A stretch of DNA of 64,000 bases from an uncultured delta proteobacterium (GCA_963740905.1 CAVUFY010000012.1:213040-277039); one strand, 5' to 3'. Counted from the first letter of the stretch, positions 19,563 to 62,350 are shown. Notes: generated by a model not told the origin, from the letters alone. Translations and numbers: made by a program.

Positions 19563-19577
19563 CAGATCTGTTTCCGA

Positions 19578-20564
19578 CTAGTCCTTCACCTCGACCAGTG
19601 GTTTCAGTTCTTGCGGCAGTTTGGCTTCCATCGCTGCGGTCGGGACCCTACACGGGATAAACGGGGGCTGTCCCTGGTCTTTGAGCACCTTGAGACCTCC
19701 GTCAGGAGCGAGCATGTACCTGAGGAAAGCTACAGCCGCCTCCTTGTTGGGGGCGCTCTTGATGAGCGTTATGCCGTAAGTGACCGAGCCTCCTTTGATT
19801 TCCATAAACGTCCCCGGCTGCTTGCCCGTGACCTTGACCGACGCCTGGGCATAAAAATCGTCGAACTTGTAGTTGCCAAGGTTGATCTCATCGGGAAGAA
19901 GGACATACTTGAGCCCGTGCTGCACGGCGACAGACAGATACTCCCAGGCATAATCCATATTGCCCGTCTGAAGCAGGGAAACCAGTTCCACGGATTTGGG
20001 CCGGACATTTTCCTTGGGCCTGTTGGCAAGTAGGGCGTCATAAAGCCCCCGTTTCTTGTAGAGCTTTTCCGCCAGTTGCAGGACCATGAGGGCGCGATAC
20101 CCGCAGGGATCCAGATTTGGATCGGAGTGTCCCCACACTACCCCCTTCTTTTGGAGAATATCATACCAATTGTTCTTGCTGATTTTGTCTGCATCCTTGC
20201 TCTGTTGCGTGTAGCAGAGAACGAGTTGATTGGATGCAAAGCGAATATTCCAATCCGCGTAATCGGGAATGAGCAACTTATCAATGACCTTGTAATCCGC
20301 CGAGGCCATGATGTCGCACGGCTTCTTGAGATCTGTTATTTTGCGGGCACAGGCCTGACTCCCGGCTGCTTCGCGGAGAAGGTCCACCTTCGGATACTTG
20401 GCCTCAAAGGCCTTTTCCATGGCTTCGAATGGCACCGAAAGGCTTCCCGCGTGAAACATGGTCAGTTTACCTTGGGGCTCGCTATAGGCAAACCCACTTA
20501 GCAGCATCGTGGCAAACAGAAAACACAATGCTGTGATCATTCCGAACCTAAACGATTCTCTCAT
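19578..20564 (-). CDS. wtpA: WtpA-type tungstate/molybdate-binding protein
   Basis: Signal peptide followed by [56 protein letters not shown], which resembles archaeal-type WtpA. AAGGAGG RBS upstream of the ATG at 20564. Confidence 0.75.
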
Positions 20565-20700
20565 GAATTGTTCCTCCTTAGTTCTCATTTAAATTTCCCT
20601 TTTTGGCGGTGGTAGATATGCCGTGTCAGCTTCCGCGCCGTCCCCCATTGCAAGCCTCAACGATTCCTAGTGTCAGGACGGAGGCCGACTCCACGATCGC

Positions 20701-21576
20701 TTACTTCGGTCCTTCGACGGGTTTTCCTCTGTACGGGTAATCTTTCAACCTGGTGTCAGCCCGTTTGTGAGGATTAGACAGGGTCTTGGAAGGATCAATC
20801 CATTCTTCCCATTTGAAATTCTCGATCACTTTCGCCTGGTAGCTTTCCTCCAGGGGGCGACTGAGGATGTCGTTGATGTGCATGTACTGGTGATAGCGCA
20901 TCAGGTCCACCTGATAAGGAGTGGGTTTGCCTCCTGCAGCCTTGACCACCTTCTTAAGCTCTAAGACCTCTTGCATGCTGACTTTGGGCGTCCATGTGAT
21001 TTTGCCGGGAAGCATCACGGATTCTCCCGGGATATTGTTGATTCCCTCCTTCCATGTAGCAAGAACGGCAACTTTCGTATCCTCGCGATACAGGATAATT
21101 GCGTGACCATAACGACTATCTTTGAAATATCCGAGATTCCCGTATTGAATCCTGGCACCTGTGAGAAACGCCACGGCGTCTGTCCAGCAAGGGGAAGTGC
21201 CCGTGATTCCCCAGACGACACTGCGATCTATGATGCCGTCCGGAAAGAGAATGTCCAAAGCAACCTTGCAGCAGGAAGTTGCATGCGAAATCCCCTCACA
21301 GTCATGGCCGTGCCACTTAATGATGTCTTTGAGTGTAACGGCGTAGGTGTAAGGATAATATCTTCCTTGGGTACCTCTTGTTGCGAGAATCTCGAAGACA
21401 GGCGCATAGGGTTTGTCCACCATGGACGCATACCAGGTTGGGGTCCGGTCCGGGGGCGTCACACCTGTCTCGATGAAGATGTTTTTTCCCTGCACATATG
21501 TGGGCTCCCCGGCCCAGCAAGACAAACCGATGAAAACTAGAATGCTAATCAGCGTGATGCAAACGACTTTTTTCAT
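20701..21576 (-). CDS. Secreted FmdE-domain protein
   Basis: Signal peptide MKKVVCITLISILVFIGLSCWA. FmdE motif KWHGHDCEGISHATSCCKVAL...CWTDAVAFLTGARIQYGNL. Confidence 0.7.
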   Translation of the reverse strand: MKKVVCITLISILVFIGLSCWAGEPTYVQGKNIFIETGVTPPDRTPTWYASMVDKPYAPVFEILATRGTQGRYYPYTYAVTLKDIIKWHGHDCEGISHATSCCKVALDILFPDGIIDRSVVWGITGTSPCWTDAVAFLTGARIQYGNLGYFKDSRYGHAIILYREDTKVAVLATWKEGINNIPGESVMLPGKITWTPKVSMQEVLELKKVVKAAGGKPTPYQVDLMRYHQYMHINDILSRPLEESYQAKVIENFKWEEWIDPSKTLSNPHKRADTRLKDYPYRGKPVEGPK

Positions 21577-26956: not shown

Positions 26957-27682
26957 TCAGGCTTTTGTCATGGTGAGTCGCCTTGTCCCTTTGATTTGCC
27001 GGAAATTGGCGCCCTGGCTGACGCACTGAAGGGCAAGGCCGGAATCAATGACCCTTGTCCCGGAAAGAGCATCGACGCCGTGATCAAAAAGAATCGGAGA
27101 GAGCGGGACCGTATCCCCAAGCATGATGATGTAAGCCTTGCTGTCACAGAGTCCAAGTAAATGCTCAAGGGTGTGATTGGTCAAGGAAGTCCCCGTAAGG
27201 GCAACAACATGAGCCTGAGGAATCAGGCGATCGGCTTCGGCTTCGGGAAAGTCGCCCTCTTTGGGGTTCTTCTCGATGACCCAGAGAGCCCCGGCTTTCT
27301 CTCGAATCCGGGGCAGGAATGGGAAATGACCGACAATCGCCACGTTCTTCCCTTCGCCTTTCTCCAGAATAACCTCTGCCGCATTAAGCTCGGTGCATGA
27401 ATCAACGTCGACTTCGAGGAGGGAGTTGATCGCCGCCATTCCTATAGCAGCCTCGAGAATGCTTTCTGAGTGAGCCATTTGGGCAAGCTGCCTTGCATTC
27501 TTATTCAAGAGCAATCCGGGCTCCTTTACCATCGGGCCTTCTTGCTTAAGGGCGTCTCTCGGCAGAGTGGCTGCAAGACCGCAATACCGGGTTAGAACGC
27601 CGGTGTGAAAGACGCCCTGTCGAATGTCTTTTACCGGAGCGTCGTAATTGAGCGTGGCAAGGAGATCATCAAGTATTTTCAT
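26957..27682 (-). CDS. DUF4213/DUF364 protein (putative heavy-metal chelation domain)
   Basis: ...GLAATLP...AAIGMAAINSLL...NVAIVGHFPF...AHVVALTGTSLTNHTLEHLL...IIMLGDTVPLSPILFDHGVDALSG. Confidence 0.7.
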   Translation of the reverse strand: MKILDDLLATLNYDAPVKDIRQGVFHTGVLTRYCGLAATLPRDALKQEGPMVKEPGLLLNKNARQLAQMAHSESILEAAIGMAAINSLLEVDVDSCTELNAAEVILEKGEGKNVAIVGHFPFLPRIREKAGALWVIEKNPKEGDFPEAEADRLIPQAHVVALTGTSLTNHTLEHLLGLCDSKAYIIMLGDTVPLSPILFDHGVDALSGTRVIDSGLALQCVSQGANFRQIKGTRRLTMTKA

Positions 27683-31059: not shown

Positions 31060-31422
31060 TTATGCCTCATGCTCTCTCGCTGTATCGCGCCGCGAGCCTC
31101 TCATCATATATCTGGGACTCAGCAGGGATTCATTCATAAAAGCGTTCAGAACATCATCGATCTGCCCACGGACAAAAGGTATTAAACGGATGCCATACCC
31201 TTCCACAAGGCCTCCATAGAAGTCGGATATGGCTCCGCATATGAACGTTTTAACACCAAGGTCAGCCAGTTTTTTCGCACGATAAAAAAGCGATTCACCG
31301 CTATAGCGCTCATGATACCGTTTCAGAATGCTTTCGCCCTCCATGTCCACCACGAGCACTTCCCGGGCTGAATCGGCAACAGGAGATACCCGGTTCTCCC
31401 ATATCGTCAACGCCACCTTCAT
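31060..31422 (-). CDS. NifX/NifB-like (Nitro_FeMo-Co fold) small protein
   Basis: MKVALTIWENRVSPVADSAREVLVVD...FICGAISDFYGGLVEGYGIRLIPFVRGQIDDVLNAF. Paralog of 49660-50001. Confidence 0.65.
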   Translation of the reverse strand: MKVALTIWENRVSPVADSAREVLVVDMEGESILKRYHERYSGESLFYRAKKLADLGVKTFICGAISDFYGGLVEGYGIRLIPFVRGQIDDVLNAFMNESLLSPRYMMRGSRRDTAREHEA

Positions 31423-31436
31423 GGTATCTAGAAGAT

Positions 31437-31452
31437 AGCAATCCATGTGCCA
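31437..31452 (-). promoter_or_regulatory. sigma54 promoter abutting the start codon of the NifX-like gene
   Basis: The minus strand reads TGGCAC-atgga-TTGCT. Only 14 nt separate TTGCT from the ATG at 31422. Confidence 0.65.
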
Positions 31453-31536
31453 TTGGGTGATGAGAAGGGTAGTGTTAACTAATGCTAAAATTATGAGTGA
31501 CTTGAGGACCAAGGGTAGAAACGATGAGGGCGAGAA

Positions 31537-31583
31537 GTCGCATCTTTGCGACGCCTGAAGCCAGCGAGTCGCGTTCAGGCGAC
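31537..31583. promoter_or_regulatory. Tandem inverted repeats GTCGC-N6-GCGAC (candidate enhancer/UAS)
   Basis: gtcgcatctttgcgac at 31537-31552 and gtcgcgttcaggcgac at 31568-31583, located 85-130 nt upstream of the sigma54 promoter. An AT-rich tract lies between them. Confidence 0.5.
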
Positions 31584-31629
31584 TTCTGCCCCTCAAACTT
31601 CTGCCTAAGGCACTCCGGTTCCTCGACAA

Positions 31630-31702
31630 GGATATCATTCCCCGAGTAATGCATCAGGCAACGCTTGTTCAGGCAGTGGGCCATGTTGAAGAAGTGGCCC
31701 AA
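31630..31702 (-). pseudogene. Archaemetzincin (amzA) C-terminal remnant
   Basis: MGHFFNMAHCLNKRCLMHYSG matches LGHLFNMAHCLNTQCLMHYSG of the intact amzA at 51021-51638. The remnant is truncated against the yqeB stop. Confidence 0.55.
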
Positions 31703-34095: not shown

Positions 34096-34458
34096 TCATC
34101 TATTGTCGGCATCAAGCTTTATGATGTTTGAGACTTTTTCTTCCAGAATTTTGACTTTTTCATAAATGATTTTGAGGTATTGTCTATGATGATCATTGCC
34201 GGTTGATTTTTCGTTGAGCCTCCGTGCAAGCCCCCCTACTACGGTGAGCGAATTTCTCAGTTCATGGGTTATCCTTTTTGACATATCTCCTAAGGCGGCG
34301 AGCCTTTCCGCTGCTATCAACTGATGAGTTCTTTTTTCCAGTTCTGCCATACGTTCCCTGACTTTTTGCTCCAGTGCCTGATTCAAGCTATGGATTTCCT
34401 CATACAGTTGGGAAATTCTTATGACAATGCCGATCTGGTTGGATATGACATAGATCAC
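34096..34458 (-). pseudogene. Truncated paralog of the GAF/HisKA-like gene (C-terminal 120 aa only)
   Basis: IYVISNQIGIVIRISQLYEEIHSLNQALEQKVRERMAELE...ITHELRNSLTVVGGLARRL aligns with the C-terminus of 36963-37835. Confidence 0.5.
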
Positions 34459-34750
34459 GTCGTTGAAGCGCTCATGAAAGTATTTTTGTTTCTTGGCCGA
34501 TGTAACTAAGCAGACCGCAGCTTCCCATAAGACATACTGATCGATTCTCCTGCTGCGAAGAGCCGAGCTTTATTAACCGTCTCATAATTATGTAGATACA
34601 AAATAGTTTTTTGTGATATGACGGCATCCATGAAAACTACAGATGCCAGACGCCTTAATCATGCGATGTTGACGGAGCTGCGAAGGCATTCAACTTCCCA
34701 GCAAAAAATGCTAAGAAGTCTGATAATCAGCTCTTTTGAGGAGAACAAAA

Positions 34751-35453: not shown

Positions 35454-35697
35454 CCCCAATCCCCGAGGGGGACAATAAGTTTCTTGTTGGTAGGGTTTGA
35501 GCCGCTCCGGCAGTCCCCGGTGGCCATACTTTCATGCGCAAAGTACCTCATTCAGAATAGACAAAGAGAGCCAGCCGGACTATAGTTCTCATTGGTAACT
35601 GCAAGTCTTCCTGTCTTCTTTATTCGATTGCATCTCCCCCTCCTCTGTAGCCCCCGCCTTGCCAAGCTGTCTCAACTTTTCGAATCTACCTGCGAGC

Positions 35698-36048
35698 CTA
35701 GAAGTTGAAGACCTTGGCTTCGGCGGCAAGATCGATCAGATGAGGCGCTCCATCAAGCAACATGTTGGGGAAGAATTTCGACTCGTCAACCTGACGAGCC
35801 TTGGCGCAGGGGATTCAGACCCCGATCCGGACTTCCTTTTCCACCAGGTACGGTAGATAGTCGTTTGGGCAGTCACCGGTAGCTGTCTTGATATCCAGAT
35901 TGCGGGTTTTGTCCGCCCAGCCGACGCCTCCGTCAACGAAGAAAATGTTGACCTTGTATTTTTTGGAGTGAGCGATCTTGGCGAACTGGAAGCATCTCGT
36001 CGCCGCCTCATTGTCGTCCTTGCTCAGCACAAACAAGAAATTCTCCAT
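35698..36048 (-). CDS. DsrE-like selenoprotein (116 aa; Sec encoded by TGA 35815-35817), copy 1
   Basis: MENFLFVLSKDD...KVNIFFVDGGV...EVRIGV-[TGA]-IPCAKARQVDESKFFPNMLLDGAPHLIDLAAEAKVFNF*. The frame stays open for 38 codons after the TGA, and the TGA sits where the DsrE active-site Cys (..yvC..CakaRG..) is expected. Confidence 0.75.
35782..35798 (-). other. Candidate bacterial SECIS hairpin (DsrE-like copy 1)
   Basis: mRNA CUCGUCA-GGU-UGACGAG: a perfect 7-bp stem with a GGU loop, starting 16 nt after the UGA. Confidence 0.65.
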
Positions 36049-36312
36049 GACTTCCTCCCTTGGTCTCGAATTCCTCCTATTTCCTACCCTTCCCACTTGT
36101 CATTGTCACCTTCGGCAGCTCAGGCCTCTTCCCTTGCACCCGCCTCCTCTAATCCCAAGAGTTTTGTGAAAAGCAAAGATCTTATCAGGGTCAAGAATTC
36201 CGACCATAATCTGATCCGGATCCGGAGTTTCGCTGAGGAAGAAAATCGTAGAGCCTTCTCTTCCCCTCTTGGAAAAGAGCCAAGGGCACAAGCTTGAGGT
36301 TTACATTGTTTT

Positions 36313-36329
36313 GCAGTCGCCCCGACTGC
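36313..36329 (-). other. Conserved 17-nt hairpin 11 nt after the TGA of the MoaD-like gene (SECIS-like), copy 1
   Basis: mRNA GCAGUCG-GGG-CGACUGC. It is followed by AAAAC, not a U-tract, and there is no U-tract on the other strand either. Confidence 0.6.
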
Positions 36330-36340
36330 ATGCCTCAAGC

Positions 36341-36622
36341 TCACCCTACGGTCATCAGATGGAGTGTGTCACCATCATTCAGAGCGGCATCCATTCGATT
36401 TTCGTAGGACAGGACCGAGAAATTGACCGCCACTCGCAATCCCATGTCAATCGCTCCATTCTGATCCAGCAGGACCTGATCCACCCCACGACCGTATTTC
36501 CTTGCCATTCCGACGGCAAAATCTCTGATCGTACGGCCCGGAAACTCAAAATCAAGGGCCTTTTTCTTGTTCAGAATCTTGTAGAGCTGCGGCAGACCTT
36601 CAATCTTGAGATGGATTTTCAC
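36341..36622 (-). CDS. MoaD/ThiS-like beta-grasp protein ending ...LMTVG-TGA-GCT-TGA, copy 1
   Basis: (M)KIHLKIEGLPQLYKIL..LDFEFPGRTIRDFAVGMARKYG...LLDQNG...VAVNFSVL....MDAALNDGDTLHLMTVG. AAAGGAGG RBS lies 7 nt upstream of the GTG at 36622. A single Gly stands where MoaD/ThiS proteins end in GG. Confidence 0.7.
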   Translation of the reverse strand: MKIHLKIEGLPQLYKILNKKKALDFEFPGRTIRDFAVGMARKYGRGVDQVLLDQNGAIDMGLRVAVNFSVLSYENRMDAALNDGDTLHLMTVG

Positions 36623-36733
36623 TCGTAGACCTCCTTTCACACGGGTTACAAGGACACGCTCGCTTCCCTCAATAATCCACGGTCGGGAAGAGCCTCCTGT
36701 CCGTGAGCGGCAGAAACATGATTTTATGAATTC

Positions 36734-36982
36734 TCAATCCCAGGGCCGGACCAACCGCTTTCCATCCCTCAGCTCACCCTTCACTTTTTCCATATGGCGC
36801 AGCGAGGCGAGTTCACGCTCGATGTCCTCCTTTTTTGATTGAAGGAGTTCGGAGAGTTTACCTGGTTCAACGGGACCTTGCGGGCATTGCTCATTTTTCT
36901 CCTTTGACTTGACAAGAGAACCCTTCTTCCACTCGCTCATCCCACCAACCGGCGTCTGGCGGTCACTCTTCCCCGGTACCAA
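36734..36982 (-). pseudogene. Truncated copy of the Zn-ribbon/wHTH gene (C-terminal wHTH part only)
   Basis: ...GPVEPGKLSELLQSKKEDIERELASLRHMEKVKGELRDGKRLVRPWD matches the C-terminus of 44404-44766. The N-terminal 35 aa are unrelated and the Zn ribbon is missing. Confidence 0.45.
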
Positions 36983-37835
36983 AATTTATGAGGTTTGAAA
37001 CCTTTTCTTCCAAAACCTTAACCTCTTCGAGGATGATCTCGATGTACTTTGCATTAGGATCATTTTCGTTCGATTTCTCATGGAGCCTCCGGGCAAAGCC
37101 CCCGACGACTGTAAGGGAATTCCTGACTTCATGGGCTATTCTTCTTGACATTTCGCCTAATGTGGCAAGCCTTTCGGCCTCTAAGAGCTGCTGAGTTTTT
37201 GCTTCCAATTCTGCAGTTCTTTCTCGTACCTTTTGTTCGAGGTCTTGATTCAATTTGGAGATTTCCTCATACAGTGATGAAATCCTTATCGCGATGCCAA
37301 TCTGGTTCGATATGACATAGATCACGTCATTGAAGCGCTCGTGGAAGTAATTCTTTCTCTTGGAAGACGTCACCAAAACCCCAATCGTTTCTCCTTCAAC
37401 TTTTATAGGCGTAACCGCAAAAGACTTGATACCCTCGCAGACGATGCGATTCGTTGAGATGGGTTTGTCAGTTTGTTCAGCATCGTTGACAATGACGATT
37501 CTGCCCGTAAGAAAACAGTCCCCCGAGAAGCTATCAATAGTGGGTTTTCTTGTCGTTTGTTCTACGAATGCTTTGCTCAAGCCCTTCTGACTTTTGATTC
37601 TTAGGTTGCCATCGCTGTCCAGCAAACGGATGGAACAGGCATCTAGGTTGAACTCGTCTACAAGCAGATTAATAATGGCATCAAGGACAAGCTGGACATC
37701 GAGAAGAGATGAAACATACCTCGTAATCTCATAGAGGATTCTGATCTTCTGTTCAGCCTCTCTAGTTCGTCTGGAGATCGGATCCATTTCCAGGGTGACC
37801 TTCTCTTTTCCCTTCAAAGAAGTATTCAAAGCCAA
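36963..37835 (-). CDS. GAF + HisKA-like dimerisation domain protein lacking an ATPase domain
   Basis: GAF-like region (...LDACSIRLLDSDGNLRI...FLTGRIVIVNDA...), a coiled coil and an H-box-like RIAHEVRNSLTVVGGFARRL. The ORF ends ~40 aa later with no N/G boxes. Confidence 0.7.
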   Translation of the reverse strand: MALNTSLKGKEKVTLEMDPISRRTREAEQKIRILYEITRYVSSLLDVQLVLDAIINLLVDEFNLDACSIRLLDSDGNLRIKSQKGLSKAFVEQTTRKPTIDSFSGDCFLTGRIVIVNDAEQTDKPISTNRIVCEGIKSFAVTPIKVEGETIGVLVTSSKRKNYFHERFNDVIYVISNQIGIAIRISSLYEEISKLNQDLEQKVRERTAELEAKTQQLLEAERLATLGEMSRRIAHEVRNSLTVVGGFARRLHEKSNENDPNAKYIEIILEEVKVLEEKVSNLINFGTGEE

Positions 37836-39021: not shown

Positions 39022-39336
39022 TCAACAACCCGATCCAACTCCTCCCCCCGCTTTCCCTCCGCCCTTCCTGAGGCGAATAAGATAATGATCGATTTCATCC
39101 CGTATGCACATCACTTCGCAGGAACAGATCCCTAAGATCTTCAAGAACTCTCTGCGGGTATCTGGATCCGAACCGATGATCTCCATGATTTCTCCGACTC
39201 TAATCTTCCTGAACTTCTGGGCGATTTTCAGCAAGGTAAGAGGAATGATCATTCCTCTCAGATCAAGAATGTTTTCCACTGCTGGTTCCAATAGAGAACT
39301 TGTTTTCTCGCCTTTTTCCCCGTCTCTTCTGATCAT
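39022..39336 (-). CDS. TusA/SirA-like protein lacking the conserved Cys (start uncertain)
   Basis: ILDLRGMIIPLTLLKIAQKFRKIRVGEIMEIIGSDPDTRREF resembles TusA LD.RG..CP.P.L. However, Cys-Pro is replaced by Ile-Pro. Confidence 0.45.
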   Translation of the reverse strand: MIRRDGEKGEKTSSLLEPAVENILDLRGMIIPLTLLKIAQKFRKIRVGEIMEIIGSDPDTRREFLKILGICSCEVMCIRDEIDHYLIRLRKGGGKAGGGVGSGC

Positions 39337-39362
39337 ACTTGGTATAGGTGGAAGACCGGAAA

Positions 39363-39560
39363 TCACCTTCCTCCTGTTGGAAAGGCCATTTCGTCGCACC
39401 TCCAGCATCCCTGCTTCCTGAGATCTTTATGGGGGTTGATATTCTTGTCGCAGAGCCACGTGCATCCACTGTCATCCTTGAAGAATTTCAATGGACGGGC
39501 CGCCATGTGGCCGCAAAGCTCAGTGTAGTCATCCACTCTTGCTTCGTTCCTGTTTTCCAT
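39363..39560 (-). CDS. Small Cys-rich hypothetical protein
   Basis: 65 aa with a GGAGG RBS 6 nt upstream. The Cys pattern is C-x16-C-x3-C-x14-C-x2-C. Confidence 0.4.
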   Translation of the reverse strand: MENRNEARVDDYTELCGHMAARPLKFFKDDSGCTWLCDKNINPHKDLRKQGCWRCDEMAFPTGGR

Positions 39561-40644: not shown

Positions 40645-41670
40645 TCAACCTCCTATACTATTCATAGAGCGAACGCATTTCCGTGGACCATATATATCCA
40701 AACCATGGTTTGCGGGTTTATTGAAGATCACGTTCGTGATGAGTTCAAGCAAATGCGAATTCTCTTTTCCTTGCCTTAGAGGTGTTTTGATATCTGTTTC
40801 CTGCTCGGAGAAAAGACACCCTCTCAAGTGGCCGTCCGCCGTCAACCGAAGGCGGTTGCATTTCTCGCAAAAATGGTGACTTAGAGCACCGATCAGCCCG
40901 ATCTCCCCTTTGGCATCTTTCAGGGCGTACCGCTGAGCGGGGCCGTCCAGTGGCTTGGAATCCAGGGGCGTGATGGGTCCCAGGCGCCGAATCATGCTAA
41001 GGATTTCCTTGATAGAGACAAACCTCTCAGCGGTCCAGGAATTTTTTACGCCCACAGGCATCATTTCGATAAAGCGGACATGATAGGGTTTTCTGAACGT
41101 GAGGCATGCAAAATCCAGGATCTCGTCGTCATTCATACCCCTCATTGCAACCATGTTGATCTTGATGGGTTGCAGCCCCGCAGATTCCGCTGCTTCAATT
41201 CCTTCCCAGACCCGTTCAAAATAGTCTCGCCCGGTAATCTGGTAGAATCTTTCCGGCCTTAGCGTGTCCATGCTCACGTTAACTCGGCAGATTCCACATT
41301 CCCGGAGGGGACGGGCAAAGTCCTTGAGAAGAACGCCGTTGGTGGTCAAGCTGATTTCTTCCAGTCCATCGATGTCACAAAGCCTCTCGATAAAGGGGAT
41401 AATGCCTTTTCTAACCAGCGGCTCGCCGCCTGTAAGCCTTACCTTTCGGATACCGTGCAGGACGCTAAGGCTTACCACGCGAAGCATTTCTTCATAGGTC
41501 AAAATTTCATTGTGGGGTACGAATTCGACACCTTCTTCAGGCATGCAGTAGATACACCTCAGATTGCAACGATCGGTCACGGAAAGACGCAGGTAGTTAA
41601 TTATTCGGTGGTTGTTATCCACAAAATCGGTCTTCGTGCTCAACGCGAGCGGTGATTTCAGCTTCTGCAT
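40645..41670 (-). CDS. moaA: GTP 3',8-cyclase MoaA
   Basis: YLRLSVTDRCNLRCIYCMPEEG...RLTGGEPLVR...C-terminal ...CEKCNRLRLTADGHLRGCLF. Confidence 0.92.
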   Translation of the reverse strand: MQKLKSPLALSTKTDFVDNNHRIINYLRLSVTDRCNLRCIYCMPEEGVEFVPHNEILTYEEMLRVVSLSVLHGIRKVRLTGGEPLVRKGIIPFIERLCDIDGLEEISLTTNGVLLKDFARPLRECGICRVNVSMDTLRPERFYQITGRDYFERVWEGIEAAESAGLQPIKINMVAMRGMNDDEILDFACLTFRKPYHVRFIEMMPVGVKNSWTAERFVSIKEILSMIRRLGPITPLDSKPLDGPAQRYALKDAKGEIGLIGALSHHFCEKCNRLRLTADGHLRGCLFSEQETDIKTPLRQGKENSHLLELITNVIFNKPANHGLDIYGPRKCVRSMNSIGG

Positions 41671-43411: not shown

Positions 43412-43466
43412 GATATGCCTCCTTTCTGCTCAGAGCTGTCTCAACTTTTCGAATCTACCTGCGAGC

Positions 43467-43817
43467 CTAGAAGTTGAAGACCTTGGCTTCGGAGGCAAGA
43501 TCGATCAGATGAGGCGCTCCATCAAGCAACATGTTGGGGAAGAATTTCGACTCGTCAACCTGACGAGCCTTGGCGCAGGGGATTCAGACCCCGATCCGGA
43601 CTTCCTTTTCCACCAGGTACGGTAGATAGTCGTTTGGGCAGTCACCGGTAGCTGTCTTGATATCCAGATTGCGGGTTTTGTCCGCCCAGCCGACGCCTCC
43701 GTCAACGAAGAAAATGTTGACCTTGTATTTTTTGGAGTGAGCGATCTTGGCGAACTGGAAGCATCTCGTCGCCGCCTCATTGTCGTCCTTGCTCAGCACA
43801 AACAAGAAATTCTCCAT
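43467..43817 (-). CDS. DsrE-like selenoprotein (Sec encoded by TGA 43584-43586), copy 2
   Basis: Same protein as copy 1. The ORF-track entry 43584-43817 stops at the in-frame TGA, and the frame stays open to TAG 43467-43469. Confidence 0.75.
43551..43567 (-). other. Candidate SECIS hairpin (DsrE-like copy 2)
   Basis: Identical CUCGUCA-GGU-UGACGAG. Confidence 0.65.
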
Positions 43818-43982
43818 GACTTCCTCCCCTATTCTCCAATTCCTCCTTCCTCCTACCCGTCCTCACTTCTCATTTCCACCTTCGGCAGCCCATGCCTCTT
43901 CCCTTGCAACCGTCTGTTTCCTCCCCGATCTTCTCCTCTTGGAAAAGAGCCGAGGGCGTAAGGTTGATGTTTACTTTGTTTT

Positions 43983-43999
43983 GCAGTCGCCCCGACTGC
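43983..43999 (-). other. Conserved post-TGA hairpin of the MoaD-like gene, copy 2
   Basis: GCAGUCG-GGG-CGACUGC, 11 nt after TGA 44011-44013. Confidence 0.6.
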
Positions 44000-44010
44000 A
44001 TGCCTCAAGC

Positions 44011-44292
44011 TCACCCTACGGTCATCAGATGGAGTGTGTCACCATCATTCAGAGCGGCATCCATTCGATTTTCGTAGGACAGGACCGAGAAATTGACCGC
44101 CACTCGCAATCCCATGTCAATCGCTCCATTCTGATCCAGCAGGACCTGATCCACCCCACGACCGTATTTCCTTGCCATTCCGACGGCAAAATCTCTGATC
44201 GTACGGCCCGGAAACTCAAAATCAAGGGCCTTTTTCTTGTTCAGAATCTTGTAGAGCTGCGGCAGACCTTCAATCTTGAGATGGATTTTCAC
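44011..44292 (-). CDS. MoaD/ThiS-like beta-grasp protein, copy 2
   Basis: Protein identical to copy 1, with the same RBS and the same TGA-GCT-TGA ending. Confidence 0.7.
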   Translation of the reverse strand: MKIHLKIEGLPQLYKILNKKKALDFEFPGRTIRDFAVGMARKYGRGVDQVLLDQNGAIDMGLRVAVNFSVLSYENRMDAALNDGDTLHLMTVG

Positions 44293-44403
44293 TCGTAGAC
44301 CTCCTTTCACACGGGTTACAAGGACACGCTCGCTTCCCTCAATAATCCACGGTCGGGAAGAGCCTCCTGTCCGTGAGCGGCAGAAACATGATTTTATGAA
44401 TTC

Positions 44404-44766
44404 TCAATCCCAGGGCCGGACCAACCGCTTTCCTTCCCTCAGCTCACCCCTCACTTTTTCCATATGGCGCAGCGAGGCGAGTTCACGCTCGATGTCCTCC
44501 TTTTTTGATTGAAGGAGTTCGGAGAGTTTACCTGGTTCAATGGGCCCTTGCATGTGGAGCAATTCAAGGATCTCCTTTTGAAGCTTGTTGAGTTGCGGTT
44601 CATCCTCCTGTTCTTTCAAGAACGTCTTTGCGCTATACACCGCCCACGGATCACAACCTTTTACCGGGGAAAGGAGGTCCATGTAACAATCTTCACAAAG
44701 AATCAGCCCGTGAAGTTCTTTTTCTTCCCCCTCGATGATAACGACGTTACATCTCTGACATTGCAT
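44404..44766 (-). CDS. Zn-ribbon + winged-helix protein (full-length copy)
   Basis: MQCQRCNVV...LILCEDCYMDLLSPVKGCDPWAV (CxxC...CxxC) followed by ...LNKLQKEILELLHMQGPIEPGKLSELLQSKKEDIERELASLRHMEKVRGE (wHTH-like). Confidence 0.55.
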   Translation of the reverse strand: MQCQRCNVVIIEGEEKELHGLILCEDCYMDLLSPVKGCDPWAVYSAKTFLKEQEDEPQLNKLQKEILELLHMQGPIEPGKLSELLQSKKEDIERELASLRHMEKVRGELREGKRLVRPWD

Positions 44767-45656: not shown

Positions 45657-46518
45657 TCAAGACCTTGTGCCAGATCTTCGCCAGATCTTTTTGACTGCCC
45701 CGGCGGCCTCGGAATGGCCGTCATATTCAAAAATGGTCTTCCCCTGGACCATTGCCTTTGTAAAGACTGGATCAAATGGGATTCGACCCATCACCCTTAT
45801 CTGCTTTCTCCCGGGCAAAGTCTTCTATGGCCCGTCCCTGGTCGGGATTGAGATCGAATTTGTTGACGCAGACTATGGCCGGGACCTTGAAAAAGGCAGC
45901 CAGTTCGGCTACGCGCTCCATGTCGTGCCTGCCCGAAACCGTGGGCTCTGCCACGATGAGGACCGCCGTTGCCCCGCCAAGGGAAGCGATCACCGGACAC
46001 CCAATGCCTGGAGGGCCGTCTGTGAGCAGCAAATCCAGGTTCTTTTCTTCCGCAAGCTTCTTGCCTTGCTGCCGGATAAGGGTCACGAGTTTGCCCGAGT
46101 TTTCTTCCGCAATGCCCAGCCTTGCGTGGGCCATGGGGCCGAAGCGGGTGTCGGAAATGAACCATTCCCCGCATGTGTTCAGGGGAAAATCAATCGCTTC
46201 TTCAGGGCAGAAATAGTGACACACACCACAGCCCTCGCAGGCGATGGGGTCCACCACAAAATCTTCGCTGATGGCGTTCCACCTGCACAAATCTCGGCAA
46301 CGACCACATTGGGTGCATTTGTCCTGATTGATTACGGCCATATGACCGGACTGAAAATCATGGCGCTCCATGATCCGTGGGTCCATGATCAGATGAAGAT
46401 CCGCCGCATCCACATCCGCATCACAAAGCACCTTGCCCTTTGCCAGGGAAGCGAAGGCGGCCAATATGCTTGTCTTCCCTGTCCCTCCCTTGCCGCTTAT
46501 GACAACCAGTTCCTTCAT
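45657..46518 (-). pseudogene. MinD/ParA-like P-loop ATPase with a 4Fe-4S ferredoxin insert, C-terminal frameshift
   Basis: ISGKGGTGKTS, two Cys clusters (CTQCGRCRDLC; CEGCGVCHYFCP) and DGPPGIGCPVI. After ...EDFAREK the homology continues in the +1 frame as QIRVMGRIPFDPVFTKAMVQGKTIFEYDG... (shift window 45797-45817). Confidence 0.7.
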
Positions 46519-46561: not shown

Positions 46562-47403
46562 CTATTGAGCAATAATTTCTTCAATTCGATGGAATAAATC
46601 CTGGAATTTCTGCTTCCACTCGGGCATCACCTCGACGAGCATCTCCCCCTTCGAGTAGGACTCCGCGATTTTACGATCAAAAGGGATCTCCATCAGGATG
46701 GGCATCCCCTCGCTCTCTGCATATGTCCCTCACCTGATCATCGCCCATATCCGAGCGATTGATGACTAGCCCGCAGGGAATCCCGAGAATATTCACGGCC
46801 CCCACAGCCAGCTTGAGGTCATGGAGGCCGAAAGGGGTGGGTTCTGTAACCAGCAAGACGAAATCCGCTCCTTTCATGGAGGCGATCACTGGACATGAAG
46901 TCCCGGGAGGGGCATCAATGATGGTCAACAACCCCGGTCGTGTATATTCTCGGACTTTTCTGAATAAGAGGAGGGGACATGGCCTCTCCGACCCTTAACC
47001 TGCCGTGCACGAATTCCAGGCCGTCCCTGTGCCCGATCTGGATGACACCCAGTTCACGCCCCACCTCGGTAATGGCCCCATCGGGGCACACCTCCATGCA
47101 TCCGCCGCAACTGTGGCAGAGCTCGTGGAACGGCAAAACGGTCTCACCAATGACCACAATCGCCTTGAACTGGCAGATCTCATTGCACTTCCCGCAGAGG
47201 GTGCATTTTTCCATATCCACTTCGGGCACAGGGGTGGTTATGGTCTTAACCCCTTCAATCGCAGGCTGGATAAAGAGATGGGCGTTGGGTTCTTCTACAT
47301 CGCAGTCCAGGAGCTGCACGCCGGATTCAAGTGATACGGCCAGATTGGTGGCCACGGTCGTCTTTCCCGTTCCTCCTTTTCCGCTCGCTATGCTGATAAT
47401 CAT
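46562..47403 (-). pseudogene. Second MinD/ParA-like Fe-S ATPase, two frameshifts
   Basis: IASGKGGTGKTT, CTLCGKCNEIC, CHSCGGCMEVCP. The frame changes at the A4 run 46956-46959 (...PPLIQK / VREYTRPGLLTIIDAPPGTSCPVI...) and at the G4 run 46706-46709 (...ICRERG / MPILMEIPFDRKIAESYSKGE...IIAQ*). Confidence 0.7.
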
Positions 47404-50046: not shown

Positions 50047-50259
50047 CAGATAGCAGGGAATCCTACAAGGGCATAAAATATTGAGCTATCAGTAAGTTAG
50101 CTTAAGAAAGAGAAGGGGAGGGCAACAAGGAAGATTTCTTTTTTTGCAACCCGAAGATATTTGAAGTAGCATCATTGCGACCTTATTGGTTTCAGGCCCA
50201 GATAGCTCCCTCAAGCTAACCATCCGCAGTGTAACCACATAGAGCTCAAGACGTTTTTT

Positions 50260-50276
50260 GCAGTCGTCCCGACTGC
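50260..50276 (-). other. Conserved post-TGA hairpin of the MoaD-like gene, copy 3
   Basis: mRNA GCAGUCG-GGA-CGACUGC, again exactly 11 nt after TGA 50288-50290. Confidence 0.6.
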
Positions 50277-50287
50277 GTAACTCAGGC

Positions 50288-50569
50288 TCACCCTACGGTC
50301 ATCAGATGGATTGTGTCACCATCATGGAGAGCAGTGTCCATTCGATTTTCATACGACAGGACCGAGAAATTGATCGCTACTCGCAATCCCATGTCAATCG
50401 CACCATTCTGATCCAGCAGGACCTGATCCACCCCGCGACCGTATTTCCTTGCCAGACAAGCGGCGAAATCCCTGATCGTCTGGCCCGGAAAGTCAAAATC
50501 AAGGGCCTTTTTCTTGTTCAGGATCTTGTAGAGCTGTGGCAGACCTTCGATCTTGAGATGGATTTTCAT
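50288..50569 (-). CDS. MoaD/ThiS-like beta-grasp protein, copy 3 (ends ...LMTVG-TGA-GCC-TGA)
   Basis: MKIHLKIEGLPQLYKILNKKKALDFDFPGQTIRDFAACLARKYG...MDTALHDGDTIHLMTVG. ATG start with an AAAGGAGG RBS. Confidence 0.7.
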   Translation of the reverse strand: MKIHLKIEGLPQLYKILNKKKALDFDFPGQTIRDFAACLARKYGRGVDQVLLDQNGAIDMGLRVAINFSVLSYENRMDTALHDGDTIHLMTVG

Positions 50570-50763
50570 TTGTAGACCTCCTTTCACATGTATTTCAGAA
50601 ACGGTTCGCTTCCCTCGATTTCAGTTCTTCCTAGAGAGAAAGGGCCTTTTCTTCATTTTTCTCAATCTTGATTCGCTTTGAACCGGCAAAATAGATTTCT
50701 TTCGGATGATTTCCCTGTTCCTCCCTTTCCGCTGACGACGACCGATTCTCTGACTTAAGAGAT

Positions 50764-50779
50764 AGCAATCCATATGCCA
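50764..50779 (-). promoter_or_regulatory. Candidate sigma54 promoter with a ~190-nt leader to MoaD-like copy 3
   Basis: The minus strand reads TGGCAT-atgga-TTGCT. Confidence 0.6.
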
Positions 50780-50863
50780 TTGGGTCGTGAGAAAGGCAGG
50801 GTTAATTAATGCTAAAATTATGAATGAGTTGTGGACCAAGGGTAGAAACGATAAGGGTGGGAA

Positions 50864-50910
50864 GTTGCATCTTTGCGACGCCTGGGACCAACGAGTCGCG
50901 TTCAGGCGAC
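50864..50910. promoter_or_regulatory. Tandem inverted repeats (GTTGC/GTCGC)-N6-GCGAC (candidate UAS), copy 2
   Basis: gttgcatctttgcgac at 50864-50879 and gtcgcgttcaggcgac at 50895-50910. Confidence 0.5.
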
Positions 50911-51020
50911 TTCAACCCCTTAAATCGAATCGCCGGTTTGGGCTTGAGACTTCGTTGGTTGATCAACTCCCGAGTCCAGAGATAGAAACAACCCATTAAG
51001 GCAAAGGACTCCGATCAGAT

Positions 51021-54664: not shown

Positions 54665-57600
54665 TCAAATCTGGTTGACCATGGCCATGATCTGCTCGTC
54701 ATCAAAACCCTTAAGCCGAATAGCTCCGCTCCGGCACGAGGCTACACACAATCCACAGCCCTTGCATAAAACCGGATTGATTTCCGGCGAACCGTTTCCG
54801 AAGACAGTAGGCGCCCCAAAAGAACAAATGTCTACGCAGACACCGCACCGGCTGCAAGAGGCAGGATGTATTTGAGCAATCAGGCCGCTCACGAGTGCTT
54901 TACCCGCTGCCAGGTATCCGGCGGCACGGCCGGCTGCTGCCATAGCTTGGGCAATGCTTTCGTCCACAGACTTGGGAGAATGGGCCAGTCCGCAGAGAAA
55001 CACCCCTTCGGTAGCAAAATCGACCGGTCGCAGCTTGGCATGGGCCTCCACGAAAAAGCCGTCCCCATCCACAGGAAGCTTAAAAAGTTTTGCGACTGGC
55101 CCATTGTCGGGGGCTATGATGGCAGTGGCCAGAACGAGTAGGTCTGTCTTTATTTGGATCGGTCTTTGCAAAGTCGGATCAAGGACCGTTACCTCCAAGG
55201 CATCATCCCCTCTTGACAGAACGCGGGGTTTGCTATCTACGTCGTATCGGATGAACAGGATGCCCTTTTTGCGGGCTTGAGTATACAATGCTTCTCTTTG
55301 CCCGTAGGTTCTCAGGTCGCGATAGAGGACACAGATATCCAAATCAGGATTTCGACGGCGCATTTCCAATGCGGCTTCTATGGTATGAGTGCAGCATACC
55401 CGGCTGCAATAGGGCCGGCCGGGCTCGCGAGAGCCCACACACTGGATGAAGATCGCCGAACGGATTCTTTTCAGTTCCGGGTCGTCTTGGACAAGAAGCC
55501 TGTCCAGCTCTAATTGAGTGATCACTTTGGGATGCTCGCCATAGCAGTACTCGTTGGGCTTGAACTCTTCTGCTCCAGTGGCTATGACGGTCACTCCGTG
55601 CTTTAGAACTGTCTTTGCGCCGTCCTCTTTTCGTGTGAGCGTCGATGTGAAGTTACCAACGAAGCCCTCGACCTTGGATAGGACTGTAGTGAGATAAACA
55701 CGGATGAGGGGACCATGTTCCACTTCATTGATCAGTTGCCTCAGGTAGTTGCGTATGGATTCTCCTTTCCATGTCTGGTGGAGAGACCTGGCCACGCCTC
55801 CCAGCTCACTGTTCCGCTCGACCAAATGAACCTGAAAGCCCTGATCCGCCAGGTTCCTGGCTGCCGTCATGCCTGCGATTCCTCCCCCGAGGACAAGGGC
55901 CTCAGGATGCATCCCCACTTCAGTTTCCTGAAGGGGCTCCAAAAGGGCCACCTTTGCAACAGCCATCCTTACCAGATCCTTAGCCTTTTCCGTGGCCGAA
56001 GTCGGGTGACCGCTGTGGACCCAGGAATCCTGATTCCGAATGTTGGCCATCTCGAAGAGGTATTTGTTCAAGCCGGCATTCAGCAGAGTCTCCTGGAAAA
56101 GGGGTTCATGGGTTTTTGGTGTGCAGGCGGCCACAACCACTCGATTAATCCCAATTTCCTTGATCACCTGTGACATCTTTACCTGGGTATCCTGAGAACA
56201 GGTGTAAAGGTTGTCTTCAACATAGACCACATAGGGAAGAGATTTTGCGTAATTCCGAACCGCTGGCACATCCACCACGCCCCCGATATTGATGCCGCAT
56301 TGGCATACAAAGACTCCAATGCGGGGAGATTCTCCGAGCACATTGATCTCTACCGGCCTCTCGGCAACCTGGGTTTGAGACCACCTGCTCTCCTTAAGCA
56401 ATGCGCTTGACGCGGCTGCAGCCGCAGAGGCCTCTATAACGGATTGGGGAATATCTTTGGGGCCTTGGAAGGATCCGCAGGCATAAATTCCAAGCCTTGA
56501 AGTGGCCACGGGGTGGAAACTGTCGGTCTTCGCGAAATGATGTTCGTCAAGCTCCACTCCCGCCCGGCGCGCAAGTTCAATGGTCTTTTTTCCAGCCTCA
56601 AAGCCTACCGACAAGACGACCATGTCAAAGATTTCGTCTTTGGTCTTTCCTGTGTCATCGACATACCTTATATTTAGATCACCCTCTCCCGACGTTTCAA
56701 CACTATGAATTCGGGAGCGAATGAAGCGAACGCCAAGCTCCTTTTGAGCGCGCGTGTAGTACTGCTCGAACGCCTTACCATAGGTGCGCATGTCCAGATA
56801 GAAAATGGTTGCGTCCAAGTCTGAATGTGCATGGTCCTTCGCAATCATCGCCTGCTTTATGGCATATGTGCAGCAGACCGAAGAGCAATAAGCGTTCCCG
56901 CTGTTACGATTGCTTCGTGAGCCGACGCACTGGACCCAGGCAATCCTTTTGGGCTCCTCCCGGTCATAAGGACGCATCAGACGCCCCATAAACGGGCCGG
57001 AAGCGCTGAGCAGTCTTTCAAATTCCAAGCTGGTGACCACGTTGGGGGAGGCGCTATAGCTGTACATGTCCAGTTTGGAGGGATCAAAAACCCTGTTGCC
57101 GGTTGCGATGATGATCGCTCCCACCTCCAGGACCCTTTTTCGAGGTTTGTCGTCGTAGCGCACCGCCCCTGCTAGGCAGATCTTTTCACAGAGCCCACAG
57201 CCAATGCACGCATCCCGATCGATCGCATACGACAGGGGCACAGCCTGCGCATAGGTGATGTAAGTGGCCGCGCGCCGGTCAAGACCGCAGTCGAACTCGT
57301 TGACCGCCCTGACCGGGCAGACCATACTGCACTGTCCGCAGGCGGTGCACTTCTTCGGGTCAATGTATCGCGGGCGGTTGGATAAAGTGACCCGAAAACG
57401 GCCGGGTTCACCTTCCAGTTCCTTGACTTCCGTACTGGTGATAACGTCAATGTTGCGATGCCGGCCGACCTCGACCAGTTTCGGCGAAATGATTCACATG
57501 GCGCAGTCGTTGGTGGGGAAAGTCTTGTCCAACTGGGACATGAGCCCGCCGATGGTAGGCGATTGGTCCACAAGGTGGACGTAGTATCCCAAAGCGGAAA

Positions 57601-57740: not shown

Positions 57741-58601
57741 TCAGAGACCACCCCGCGGCCGGGCCGGAACGGCGTTTGGTTGCGGCCTGAGGACTGCATT
57801 AGGATTAGAATCATGACTTCCTCGTGTCGATCTTTCCAGGGATCCATAACCCGGGTGGACAAATTTTGGTGTCGTTCCCTGATAGGATTCGATTTCAGCG
57901 TGGTGCTGTCTTTCCAGTTCGCCCAGCCGAAGGGAGACGGTGTAGACAGGCAACCCGGTCAAAAAGGCAATCTCCCTGACCGACAAAGGCTCCCGCATAA
58001 TCGCCTCTGAGACGAGGGCACTCTGGTATTCTTCCTCTGTGGCCTGCTGCAAAAGATTTTTGTAATGTTCTTCGGGGACGCTCTCACCATAAACATTTCC
58101 CTCCCGGGTAAGCGAAAGCTCTATTCCCATGAGCCACCGCAGTCTCTGTGAGGTTAAGGACGTTTCAACAGCCTCCAGTTCCATTTCATACCGGGCAGGA
58201 TCAAAAGGCCCAAGATTTCTTGTCATCTCACTGAACTGCGTCACATATTCTGCAAAAAGTTTACCTTCCGCTGCGCTCACCCAACGCAGGCAGAGTCGGT
58301 CACCACCAATCCCTGAGAGATCCAGCAGCCTTTTGACGACCTCCATCTCCTTCGCCACATGGACATTACCGTACAGGTAATGGCATTCCCCCATGTGTCA
58401 GCCGGAGACAAAGATGCTGTCAAATCCTGTTCTAAGACCACGTATCACGAAAATGGGGTCAACCCGTCCGGAGCACATGGTTCTGATGACCCTGATTGCA
58501 GGAGGGTATTGAATCCTCGACACACCTGCCAGATCCGCGCCTGCATAGGCACACCAGTTGCAGAGGAATGCCAAGATCTTCGGTTCAAATTGCTCAGTCA
58601 T
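57741..58601 (-). CDS. mvhD: MvhD-like selenoprotein (Sec encoded by TGA 58398-58400) with a ~200-aa C-terminal extension
   Basis: ...ILAFLCNWCAYAGADLAG...IRTMCSGRVD...FDSIFVSG-[TGA]-HMGECHYLYGN. The TGA replaces the first Cys of the G-C-x-x-G-(D/E)-C-H motif (GCLEGDCH in the Cys copy at 9444-9881). Both ORFs are in the same frame. Confidence 0.8.
57778..57804. repeat. 27-nt dispersed motif, copy 3 (inside the 3' end of the mvhD-fusion ORF)
   Basis: ggttgcggcctgaggactgcattagga. Confidence 0.55.
58364..58382 (-). other. Candidate SECIS hairpin (MvhD)
   Basis: mRNA CAUUACC-UGUAC-GGUAAUG: a perfect 7-bp stem starting 15 nt after the UGA. Confidence 0.55.
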
Positions 58602-61700: not shown

Positions 61701-62350
61701 TTCTGGAACTCATCGTAACCGTATTCACGGAGGGTCCGCGGATCGACAGGTTTGAGCCCCAAAGCGAGGACCAGGGCTCCCACTTTGATCTCATAGCGCT
61801 TTGCCTGTTGAGAAAAATCTATCGCTTTTGCCGGGCACAATTTCTCACAGGCTCGACATTTCCCCTTTTCAAAATAGAGGCAATGTTCAGCGTCAATAGC
61901 GTACTTCAGAGGAACAGCCTGGGGGTACCGCACATAGGCTGCTTTGCGCCGGCTCAGACCCTGGTTGAATTCGTCATCTACTTGGCGTGGACATTTTGTG
62001 GCACAAAGGCCACAGGCAATGCACCTGCTTGTGTCCACATAGCGCGGGACCTCATGGAGGGTGACCTCGAAACGGCCGGCCGAGCCCCTGACGGCTTCGA
62101 CCTCTGTTAACGTGTGGAGAAGAATGTTTGGGTTCCGGCCGACCTCGACCAGTTTGGGTGAGAGGATTCACATGGCGCAGTCATTGGTTGGAAACGTCTT
62201 GTCCAAGGCACTCATGATCCCGCCAATGGCCGAGTCTTTCTCAACAAGGTGTACCAGATATCCTGAGCCGGACAAGTCAAGGGAGGCCTGTATCCCGGCG
62301 ATTCCACCGCCGATGACCATAACCGATCCTGTGGTCTCCATACGAGTCAT
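58712..62350 (-). CDS. hdrA: HdrA-like selenoprotein (Sec encoded by TGA 62168-62170) fused to a C-terminal GcvH-like domain
   Basis: ...[12 protein letters not shown]-[TGA][17 protein letters not shown]... is in frame with the 1108-aa ORF (43 bridging codons). The last 174 aa (58712-59236), MADDYYFHRGHSWLSLERGGRVKIGVDDF...SPVTGKIFDVN...DPYEKGWL, are glycine-cleavage-H-like. Confidence 0.85.
62135..62152 (-). other. Candidate SECIS hairpin (HdrA 2)
   Basis: Same CUGGUCG-AGGU-CGGCCGG, 15 nt after the UGA. The spacer differs from HdrA 1. Confidence 0.55.

Follow-up and report, generated by a model that had tools for sequence, protein, structure and literature searches.

A stretch of 64,000 nucleotides from an uncultured delta proteobacterium (GCA_963740905.1 CAVUFY010000012.1:213040-277039; this whole stretch is termed “the window” below) carries three copies of a small gene for a ThiS/MoaD-like protein, each of which ends in an in-frame UGA, a single sense codon, a second stop codon and a compact hairpin. 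We propose that the UGA very likely encodes selenocysteine (Sec) and that the hairpin would act as the selenocysteine insertion sequence (SECIS). The three copies and their elements are given here with coordinates on the plus strand; genes and hairpins lie on the minus strand.

50282..50569, minus strand: ThiS/MoaD-like gene copy 3, with an ATG start at 50569-50567 and 95 codons when UGA is counted as Sec
50291-50293, 50288-50290, 50285-50287 and 50282-50284, minus strand: 3′ end of copy 3, reading GGG, UGA (putative Sec), GCC (Ala) and the true stop TGA, respectively
50260..50276, minus strand: putative SECIS hairpin of copy 3, GCAGUCG-GGA-CGACUGC, with the spacer GUUAC at 50277-50281
44005..44292, minus strand: ThiS/MoaD-like gene copy 2, with a GTG start at 44292, UGA at 44011-44013, GCT (Ala) at 44008-44010 and TGA at 44005-44007
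43983..43999, minus strand: putative SECIS hairpin of copy 2, GCAGUCG-GGG-CGACUGC
36335..36622, minus strand: ThiS/MoaD-like gene copy 1, with a GTG start at 36622, UGA at 36341-36343, GCT (Ala) at 36338-36340 and TGA at 36335-36337
36313..36329, minus strand: putative SECIS hairpin of copy 1, GCAGUCG-GGG-CGACUGC

Up to its first stop, copy 3 is an open reading frame (ORF) of 93 codons that closes with CAT CTG ATG ACC GTA GGG TGA GCC TGA (...HLMTVG before the UGA). The hairpin starts 11 nt past the UGA and 5 nt past the true stop, which places it in the 3′ untranslated region (UTR), and the GG of its loop stands at +22 and +23 counted from the U of UGA. Copies 1 and 2 read GGG-TGA-GCT-TGA, then GGCAU and the hairpin, whose stem lengthens to 8 bp if a further U-A pair is included. 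A preliminary description of this region, which named neither the amino acid nor the protein, had presented copy 3 as a duplicate of about 90% identity with unrelated flanks; we measured 88.7% over 363 nt (window 50256-50616), and the similarity runs from the ribosome-binding site to 4 nt past the hairpin, so that it does stop almost directly after the hairpin, with unrelated sequence on either side. The synonymous change of the Ala codon (GCT to GCC), the 11-nt distance, the identical 7-bp stem and the loop change from GGG to GGA are likewise present in the sequence as had been stated, whereas the spacer differs at four of its 11 positions (3, 8, 9 and 11) and not at five. As set out below, the evidence points to Sec as the amino acid and to a ThiS/MoaD-like protein. 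The hairpin pattern occurs three times in the window against a mean of 0.11 in shuffled sequences (both strands counted); three near-identical copies alone prove little, and the weight of the argument comes from a wider comparison.

Copies 1 and 2 belong to a segmental duplication of about 1.2 kb (35660-36881 versus 43427-44551, 96-98% identical), which holds the tail of a Zn-ribbon-like ORF, the ThiS/MoaD-like gene and a DsrE-like gene with an indel between 36142-36259 and 43912-43929. Upstream of copy 1 lies an ORF of 82 amino acids, a truncated form of the Zn-ribbon-like ORF of 130 amino acids upstream of copy 2; the latter matches nothing in Pfam and is not conserved across the other loci. 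A non-coding repeat of 165 nt (31433-31597 versus 50760-50924, 87% identical) lies with one copy about 200-350 nt upstream of copy 3, while the other overlaps the 5′ end of the ORF at 31060-31638, and it may be a shared regulatory region.

The comparison set comprised 96 loci, 80 from metagenomes and 16 from genomes, the latter being metagenome-assembled genomes (MAGs) labelled Deltaproteobacteria, Desulfobacterales, Syntrophorhabdus and Syntrophaceae. Together they provide 73 distinct 3′ ends, over which the layout is uniform: TGA, one sense codon, a real stop, a short spacer and a hairpin, the exceptions being a frameshifted copy, a distant outlier and a contig that is truncated. TGA is the first stop in 73 of 73 ends and also in the more diverged loci L104-L107, while the second stop varies (TGA 45, TAG 18 and TAA 7 among the 70 ends outside the window). 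Exactly one codon separates the two in all 73 ends, namely GGC (22), GGA (20), GGG (14), GGT (9), GCN (7) or TGT (1), so that all four Gly codons, three Ala codons and, once, a Cys codon are in use. Conservation is 95% at positions 1 and 2 of this codon and falls to 32% at position 3, the codon-like variation for which the preliminary description had suggested looking. Because the triplet after the first stop evolves as a codon, and because the first stop never drifts while the second does, the UGA appears to be decoded.

The simplest alternative holds that UGA is an ordinary stop after ...MTVG, that the next codon and stop form a back-up tandem stop, and that the hairpin is an mRNA 3′ protection element, a terminator or a processing site. 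Gene callers in every source do end the protein at this UGA, with 44 of 44 database homologues predicted to stop exactly at ...MTVG, and tandem stops occur in bacteria. A normal stop would nevertheless be expected to drift as the second stop does, and the intervening triplet is under protein-level constraint (Gly, Ala or Cys, with the third base free).

The hairpin itself also speaks to this alternative. In a MAFFT alignment of the 73 ends, 92.6% of the stem cells are paired, compared with 10-39% after shifting the partner by 1-3 columns, and compensatory changes occur in four of the seven pairs (U-A 39 / C-G 30; A-U 58 / G-C 11), so the stem covaries as had been anticipated for a recoding element. 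The first loop base is an invariant G. The expectation of a fixed 11-nt distance held in part: the spacer is not invariant and ranges from 9 to 16 nt, but the loop G falls at +21 to +24 from the U of UGA in 68 of the 73 ends and at +26 or +27 in the other five, a range that is compatible with bacterial SECIS elements. Between the clades ending in ...VG-UGA and ...PS-UGA, which share about 45% protein identity, the spacer is 26%, the 3′ flank 35% and the stem arms 63-78% identical; as spacer and flank are unalignable while the stem is kept, the hairpin is not merely tracking overall similarity, a concern that the preliminary description had raised. A simple hairpin script chose alternative stems in six loci (L003, L005, L006, L028, L031 and L044), and the MAFFT alignment shows the conserved hairpin there too. 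The interpretation as a recoding element, originally drawn from the window copies, is thus supported by the 73 distinct 3′ ends. For an ordinary stop followed by a stabilising structure, the position of the copy 3 hairpin at the 3′ end of its transcription unit and a folding energy that is by itself unexceptional would both fit, but an invariant loop G at a fixed range is left unexplained, many loci have a further gene on the same strand that begins about 67 nt downstream, and Cys homologues described below run through the UGA position. We therefore consider an ordinary stop very improbable. A terminator was also considered as a candidate and rejected, as no terminator-like site was found and an A-run, not a U-run, follows the stem.

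A covariance model built from the 73 sequences (R1) recovers the three window copies, all of them members of its training set (copy 3 at 51 bits), and the frameshifted locus L010; it reaches the diverged hairpins of L104/L105 only at E = 0.12 and misses those of L106/L107, and so adds little. In L010 (1123-1447) the coding sequence carries a frameshift, yet the UGA-GGN-stop-hairpin element is intact (R1, 49 bits), and this copy is either a pseudogene or an assembly error. An outlier relative, L091 (gene 1475-1759; protein P0048), reads ...MGAGIA-UGA and continues for nine further in-frame codons to TAA, which may be a longer Sec tail.

A profile search over 1.8 billion representatives returned three kinds of relatives, with Sec, Cys or Gly-Gly tails. 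Additional Sec-type ends, checked at the DNA level, are ...VGG-UGA-CGU-UAG, ...VSG-UGA-UGU-UAA and ...VAG-UGA-UGU-UCC-UAA; their stems differ (GCAAUC/GAUUGC; GGCCC/GGGCC) and their GGU loops are kept. Tails beyond Gly and Ala were seen in L104/L105, L106, L107 and L016 (...GG-U-R, ...SG-U-C, ...AG-U-C-S and ...PR-U-C, each followed by a stop), and every one of these diverged types (...VGG-U-R, ...VSG-U-C, ...VAG-U-C-S, ...PR-U-C) has its own GG-loop hairpin. A vicinal selenenylsulfide could arise in the U-C variants, in contrast to the majority with its lone Sec. Cys forms occur at the Sec column in P0059 (...VGGCC, TGT-TGT-TAA) and P0070 (...LLCAA, TAA stop), both at 33-35% identity and on contigs that are too short to show gene context. 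Separately, one MAG (L015) encodes a second ubiquitin-like paralogue at 759-1040 (minus strand) ending ...FRGACLG with a TAG stop, a tail variant containing Cys, about 2 kb from its Sec-type gene at 3001-3282.

The canonical ending ...LLVAGG, followed by TAA or TAG, is found in many relatives (one that was checked has TAA-TAA, another TAG). No such hairpin was seen by eye at a GG-type 3′ end (one sequence, L098), and R1 gave no more than chance-level matches on the GG-type loci. Outside the Sec clade these GG-type MoaD proteins are the nearest sequence relatives of the family (33% identity, E = 1e-15), and they adjoin genes for tungsten aldehyde:ferredoxin oxidoreductase (AFOR). The statement that Sec replaces the penultimate Gly is true for a right-justified alignment, while MAFFT places Sec on the Ala of ...AGG, and we do not rely on it.

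Such tails raise a second alternative, in which UGA would be read as a standard amino acid, either Gly (genetic code 25) or, by a near-cognate tRNA, Trp or Cys, restoring a near-canonical tail ...PS-G-G or ...VG-G-G. Reading UGA as Gly would give an exact Gly-Gly end in the ...PS-UGA-GGA clade, in keeping with the ...AGG of the GG-type relatives. It has to contend, however, with the fact that TGA is the true second stop in 45 of the 70 sequences outside the window and in all three window copies; because UGA is also a true stop in most members, we reject UGA as Gly. Window genes also routinely end in TGA, the source lineages are Deltaproteobacteria/Thermodesulfobacteriota, in which code 25 is not known, and a G-loop hairpin is a SelB signal that near-cognate read-through would not need. 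The same window moreover holds other Sec sites, which have hairpins of like design and are given below.

35698..36048, minus strand: DsrE-like predicted selenoprotein gene, UGA at 35815-35817 in the context ...RIGV-U-IPC... (UxxC), matching PF02635 across the UGA at E = 1.2e-18
43467-43817, minus strand: DsrE-like duplicate, UGA at 43584-43586
57494-57496 and 62168-62170, minus strand: in-frame UGA codons of two HdrA-like genes, CxxU motif ...TNDCAM-U-I
about 57741-58600, minus strand: MvhD/FlpD-like gene that lies between the HdrA-like pair and is interrupted by an in-frame UGA at 58398-58400 (...IFVSG-U-HMGECHYLYG)

The DsrE-like genes lie immediately downstream of copies 1 and 2, and the one at 35698..36048 has the hairpin CUCGUCA-GGU-UGACGAG after its UGA; a DsrE-like family with a UxxC motif is listed as a known selenoprotein (PMC13188914). 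In the HdrA-like genes the UGA context (11 protein letters not given here, then I or L, then SPKLVEVGR) is followed by the hairpin CUGGUCG-AGGU-CGGCCGG, and ORF lists thus show these genes with an N-terminal truncation; a third HdrA-like paralogue at 6361-9444 (plus strand) has Cys at the UGA position (CDLC). The MvhD/FlpD-like gene probably encodes another selenoprotein. At the four DsrE and HdrA sites, GC-rich stems of 7-9 bp carry GGU or AGGU loops at +26 to +29, which is the same design as the hairpin studied here. Since DsrE-like, HdrA-like and MvhD-like proteins belong to known selenoprotein families, the five in-frame UGA sites would lend indirect support to Sec use by this organism. 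With the CxxU and UxxC sites beside it, we give almost no credence to a standard amino acid at the UGA of the ThiS/MoaD-like genes.

Curated family models recognise the protein only below their thresholds. Pfam ThiS (PF02597) matches at E = 1e-3 and 19.9 bits, below its cut-off of 22.5, and TIGR01687 at E = 2.7e-5 and 24.6 bits, below its cut-off of 49.5; an NCBIfam scan (release 20, E <= 1) returned TIGR01687, TIGR01683 and NF041918 only, with no dedicated model. In the profile search, GG-type MoaD proteins are linked to the family with E-values of 1e-13 to 1e-5. An AlphaFold2 (AF2) model from 45 homologues is a confident beta-grasp, with a predicted local distance difference test score (pLDDT) of 94 that drops to 79 in the last three residues and a predicted template modelling score (pTM) of 0.84, and its top Foldseek matches among solved structures are SAMP1, CysO, Urm1 and MoaD (E = 1e-5 to 1e-4, TM-scores about 0.6-0.8). 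The C-terminal Gly-Gly is absent from the Sec clade, where the tail is G-U-A in the window and G-U-G or S-U-G elsewhere. As the rest of the protein has no conserved Cys, the Sec would be a lone reactive centre on a flexible tail. Neither ThiF/MoeB nor MoaE/ThiG appears among the 25 commonest Pfam families of 117 ORFs flanking the gene in 31 loci, nor does either occur in those window ORFs that were scanned with Pfam or NCBIfam; MoaD is often unlinked to MoeB (PMC1779556), and the absence of an E1-like partner from the flanks is therefore not decisive.

Weighing all of this, we consider it very likely, on comparative sequence evidence, that the hairpin is a SelB-dependent SECIS element lying within the 3′ UTR, that the UGA is decoded as Sec, and that the ThiS/MoaD-like protein ends in Gly-Sec-Ala. 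In the mechanism that we envisage, the ribosome would hold the UGA at codon 94 with the stem-loop just outside the mRNA entry channel, so that the G-containing apical loop would be presented about 22 nt downstream of the UGA. SelB-GTP-Sec-tRNA(Sec) would bind this loop and deliver Sec at the UGA in place of release factor, after which one more residue (Ala in the window, Gly in most relatives) would be added before the true stop. The product would be a beta-grasp protein of about 95 residues of the ThiS/MoaD/SAMP/Urm1 type, with a tail ...Gly-Sec-Ala/Gly-COOH replacing ...Gly-Gly-COOH.

Several observations pull the other way. Only one codon follows the UGA, so the long downstream conservation that is the usual proof of Sec cannot be had. 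Single-sequence folding is only weakly better than in shuffles (z = -1.7 and -2.05). Rfam has no SECIS or other relevant family matching here, whether the whole window was scanned at gathering thresholds or 50200-50330 at E <= 10, where a chance long non-coding RNA match was the only hit. The Cys-form homologues number just two or three and are all distant (about 33-36% identity). Finally, selA, selB, selC and selD were not found within the 64-kb window, which is without any tRNA genes.

In bacteria, release factor 2 competes with Sec insertion, which is usually of low efficiency, and a truncated product is therefore to be expected. This expectation opens an extension of the Sec proposal, in which the UGA-SECIS pair would be a selenium-sensing switch that yields the Gly-Sec-Ala form with selenium and a 93-residue ...VG form without it, both being functional or the truncated one representing an off state. 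The organism keeps three gene copies, and sigma-54-type regulator and sensor kinase genes lie nearby, as would suit such a switch; set against this, the constraint on the +1 codon reflects selection on the full-length form, Cys-form homologues could not switch in this manner, and sequence data do not separate a switch from simple Sec incorporation. We judge the switch improbable.

The genes around the Sec-type loci offer a view on function. In 31 of the 96 loci there is a NifU_N scaffold gene, in every case on the same strand; 26 loci carry, about 75 nt upstream, a gene for an FmdB-type Zn-ribbon protein whose tail is Cys-rich. A TrmO-like gene follows about 67 nt downstream in 22 loci, and DUF364-type genes occur in 12. 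The Pfam census of flanking ORFs adds DUF4213, NUBPL/MinD-type (ParA) ATPases, Nitro_FeMo-Co, metallo-beta-lactamase-fold proteins and class-V aminotransferase, and no AFOR was seen in the flanks of the Sec forms. The wider region in the window is rich in genes for tungsten, molybdenum and metal-cofactor handling, at 17743-20588, 20701-21576, 2095-2712, 26957-27682 and 40645-41670; this set comprises a tungstate ABC transporter (WtpC the best NCBIfam match, below cut-off, with a permease and a binding protein), two FmdE-like genes, DUF364/DUF4213 “heavy-metal chelation” and MoaA.

Further features of the window are noted here in their own right. A TusA-family protein at 39022-39408 (minus strand; PF01206, E = 5e-9) reads LDLRGMIIPLT, which we take to be the place where the TusA motif carries its active Cys, and it may therefore be without that residue. 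A MinD/ParA-ferredoxin gene at 46677-47403 (minus strand) is split into overlapping ORFs of 162 and 84 amino acids next to an intact paralogue at 45772-46518, a split that a frameshift, a sequencing error or pseudogene status could explain. A repeat (34118-34496 versus 36985-37363, 75.6% identical) spans the HisKA portion of a GAF-HisKA sensor protein, and the 120-amino-acid ORF at 34096-34458 looks like a fragmentary paralogue of that protein.

From the neighbourhood, the fold and the tail we would expect the selenol to act as a swinging arm that carries sulfane sulfur or selenium in the form of an Se-S or Se-Se adduct, or else to ligate a metal, with the selenol side chain replacing the thiocarboxylate formed by E1-type adenylation. 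Likely partners would be the NifU-type scaffold, the NUBPL/MinD-type ATPases and the nearby DUF364 and Nitro_FeMo-Co proteins, and in this genome the adjacent DsrE-like selenoprotein would be a further candidate. Such a carrier or ligand may serve Fe-S or W/Mo cofactor assembly, a view that we rate well below the recoding claim. A more specific version, which we offer tentatively and regard as doubtful, is a MoaD-type carrier without thiocarboxylate and E1 chemistry, whose encoded selenol shuttles sulfane sulfur or selenium to a NifU/NUBPL/DUF364/Nitro_FeMo-Co assembly line, possibly linked to tungsten or molybdenum. Counting against a function in cofactor assembly, the proposal draws only on fold, tail position and gene neighbourhood, and that neighbourhood is heterogeneous: 58 of the 96 loci have no detected NifU, MinD, Nitro_FeMo-Co, radical SAM or DUF364 neighbour, the flank on a given side is shorter than 1 kb in about a quarter of the loci, and DsrE adjacency was seen in one of 96 loci outside the window.

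A 2026 inventory, which covers 119 families and subfamilies of prokaryotic selenoproteins, includes the C-terminal-Sec families UXX-star, KCU-star and SaoC and contains no ThiS/MoaD (PF02597) or ubiquitin-fold family, and in the literature on selenoproteins together with MoaD, beta-grasp or sulfur carriers we found no description of such a family. The mechanism is known; what appears to be undescribed is the protein family, along with its altered C-terminus. Recognising this family would bring a ubiquitin-fold member into a catalogue whose characterised members mostly have thioredoxin-like folds. The Gly-Gly end of sulfur-carrier and ubiquitin-like proteins is apparently replaceable by a selenol tail, which points to a relay chemistry independent of E1, and the selenol shuttle, if true, would be a new working mode for ubiquitin-fold carriers. 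There are also practical consequences, as the public protein predictions that we retrieved all end at the UGA and are thus annotated without their probable active residue, and selenoprotein searches that need long conservation after the UGA will miss such genes. The recurring NifU/NUBPL/DUF364/Nitro_FeMo-Co link gives a handle on a poorly understood set of cofactor-assembly genes in anaerobes.

Among known systems, the closest in architecture are SaoC, KCU-star and UXX-star (Haft and co-workers), which likewise have Sec within the last one to three residues, a stop almost at once, and the SECIS beyond the coding region. SaoC (Cys-Sec-COOH), with a 7-bp stem and a GGU loop 10 nt past the UGA, is a natural precedent for the layout described here. 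These star families nevertheless have no sequence relationship to the present one (NF040734, NF033934, NF041114 and NF041211 give no match at E <= 1), the fold here is a beta-grasp, and the tail is G-U followed by G, A, C or R without the preceding Cys of the CU motif; what is shared is architecture, not ancestry. By ancestry, the nearest comparison is with the GG-type AorD/AorE-like MoaD proteins, which have the same length and fold and, beside AFOR, are inferred to supply sulfur for the tungsten cofactor (PMC1779556, PMC6365974). They differ in ending ...LLAGG with TAA/TAG stops and AFOR neighbours, whereas the Sec forms lie beside NifU_N, FmdB-type Zn-ribbon and TrmO-like genes, although the window too has tungstate-transporter and MoaA genes, in line with the tungsten link of the GG type.

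For the RNA element, the reference is the E. coli fdhF SECIS, a stem-loop that also starts about 11 nt past the UGA and has its G-containing loop about 22-24 nt from the U; the loop G here matches the position of the essential loop bases of fdhF. Unlike fdhF, the element here is untranslated, its stem has no bulged U, and no Rfam model matches it. Mammalian thioredoxin reductase (Gly-Cys-Sec-Gly-COOH) resembles the family in its penultimate Sec on a flexible C-terminal tail, while its protein and fold are unrelated and its vicinal Cys forms a selenenylsulfide, where most members here have a lone Sec and rarely U-C or U-C-S. Engineered bacterial thioredoxin reductase constructs place the SECIS directly after the stop codon, as in the present layout; the arrangement “Sec, one residue, stop, 3′ UTR SECIS” is otherwise best known from such constructs, and the ThiS/MoaD-like genes would be a natural case of it. 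DsrC/TusE, finally, have a flexible C-terminal arm with a reactive chalcogen in its penultimate position and accept sulfur from DsrEFH/TusBCD. Their fold is another one and the likeness is an analogy only, with a DsrE-like gene downstream of copies 1 and 2 in the window and this adjacency not conserved across the family.

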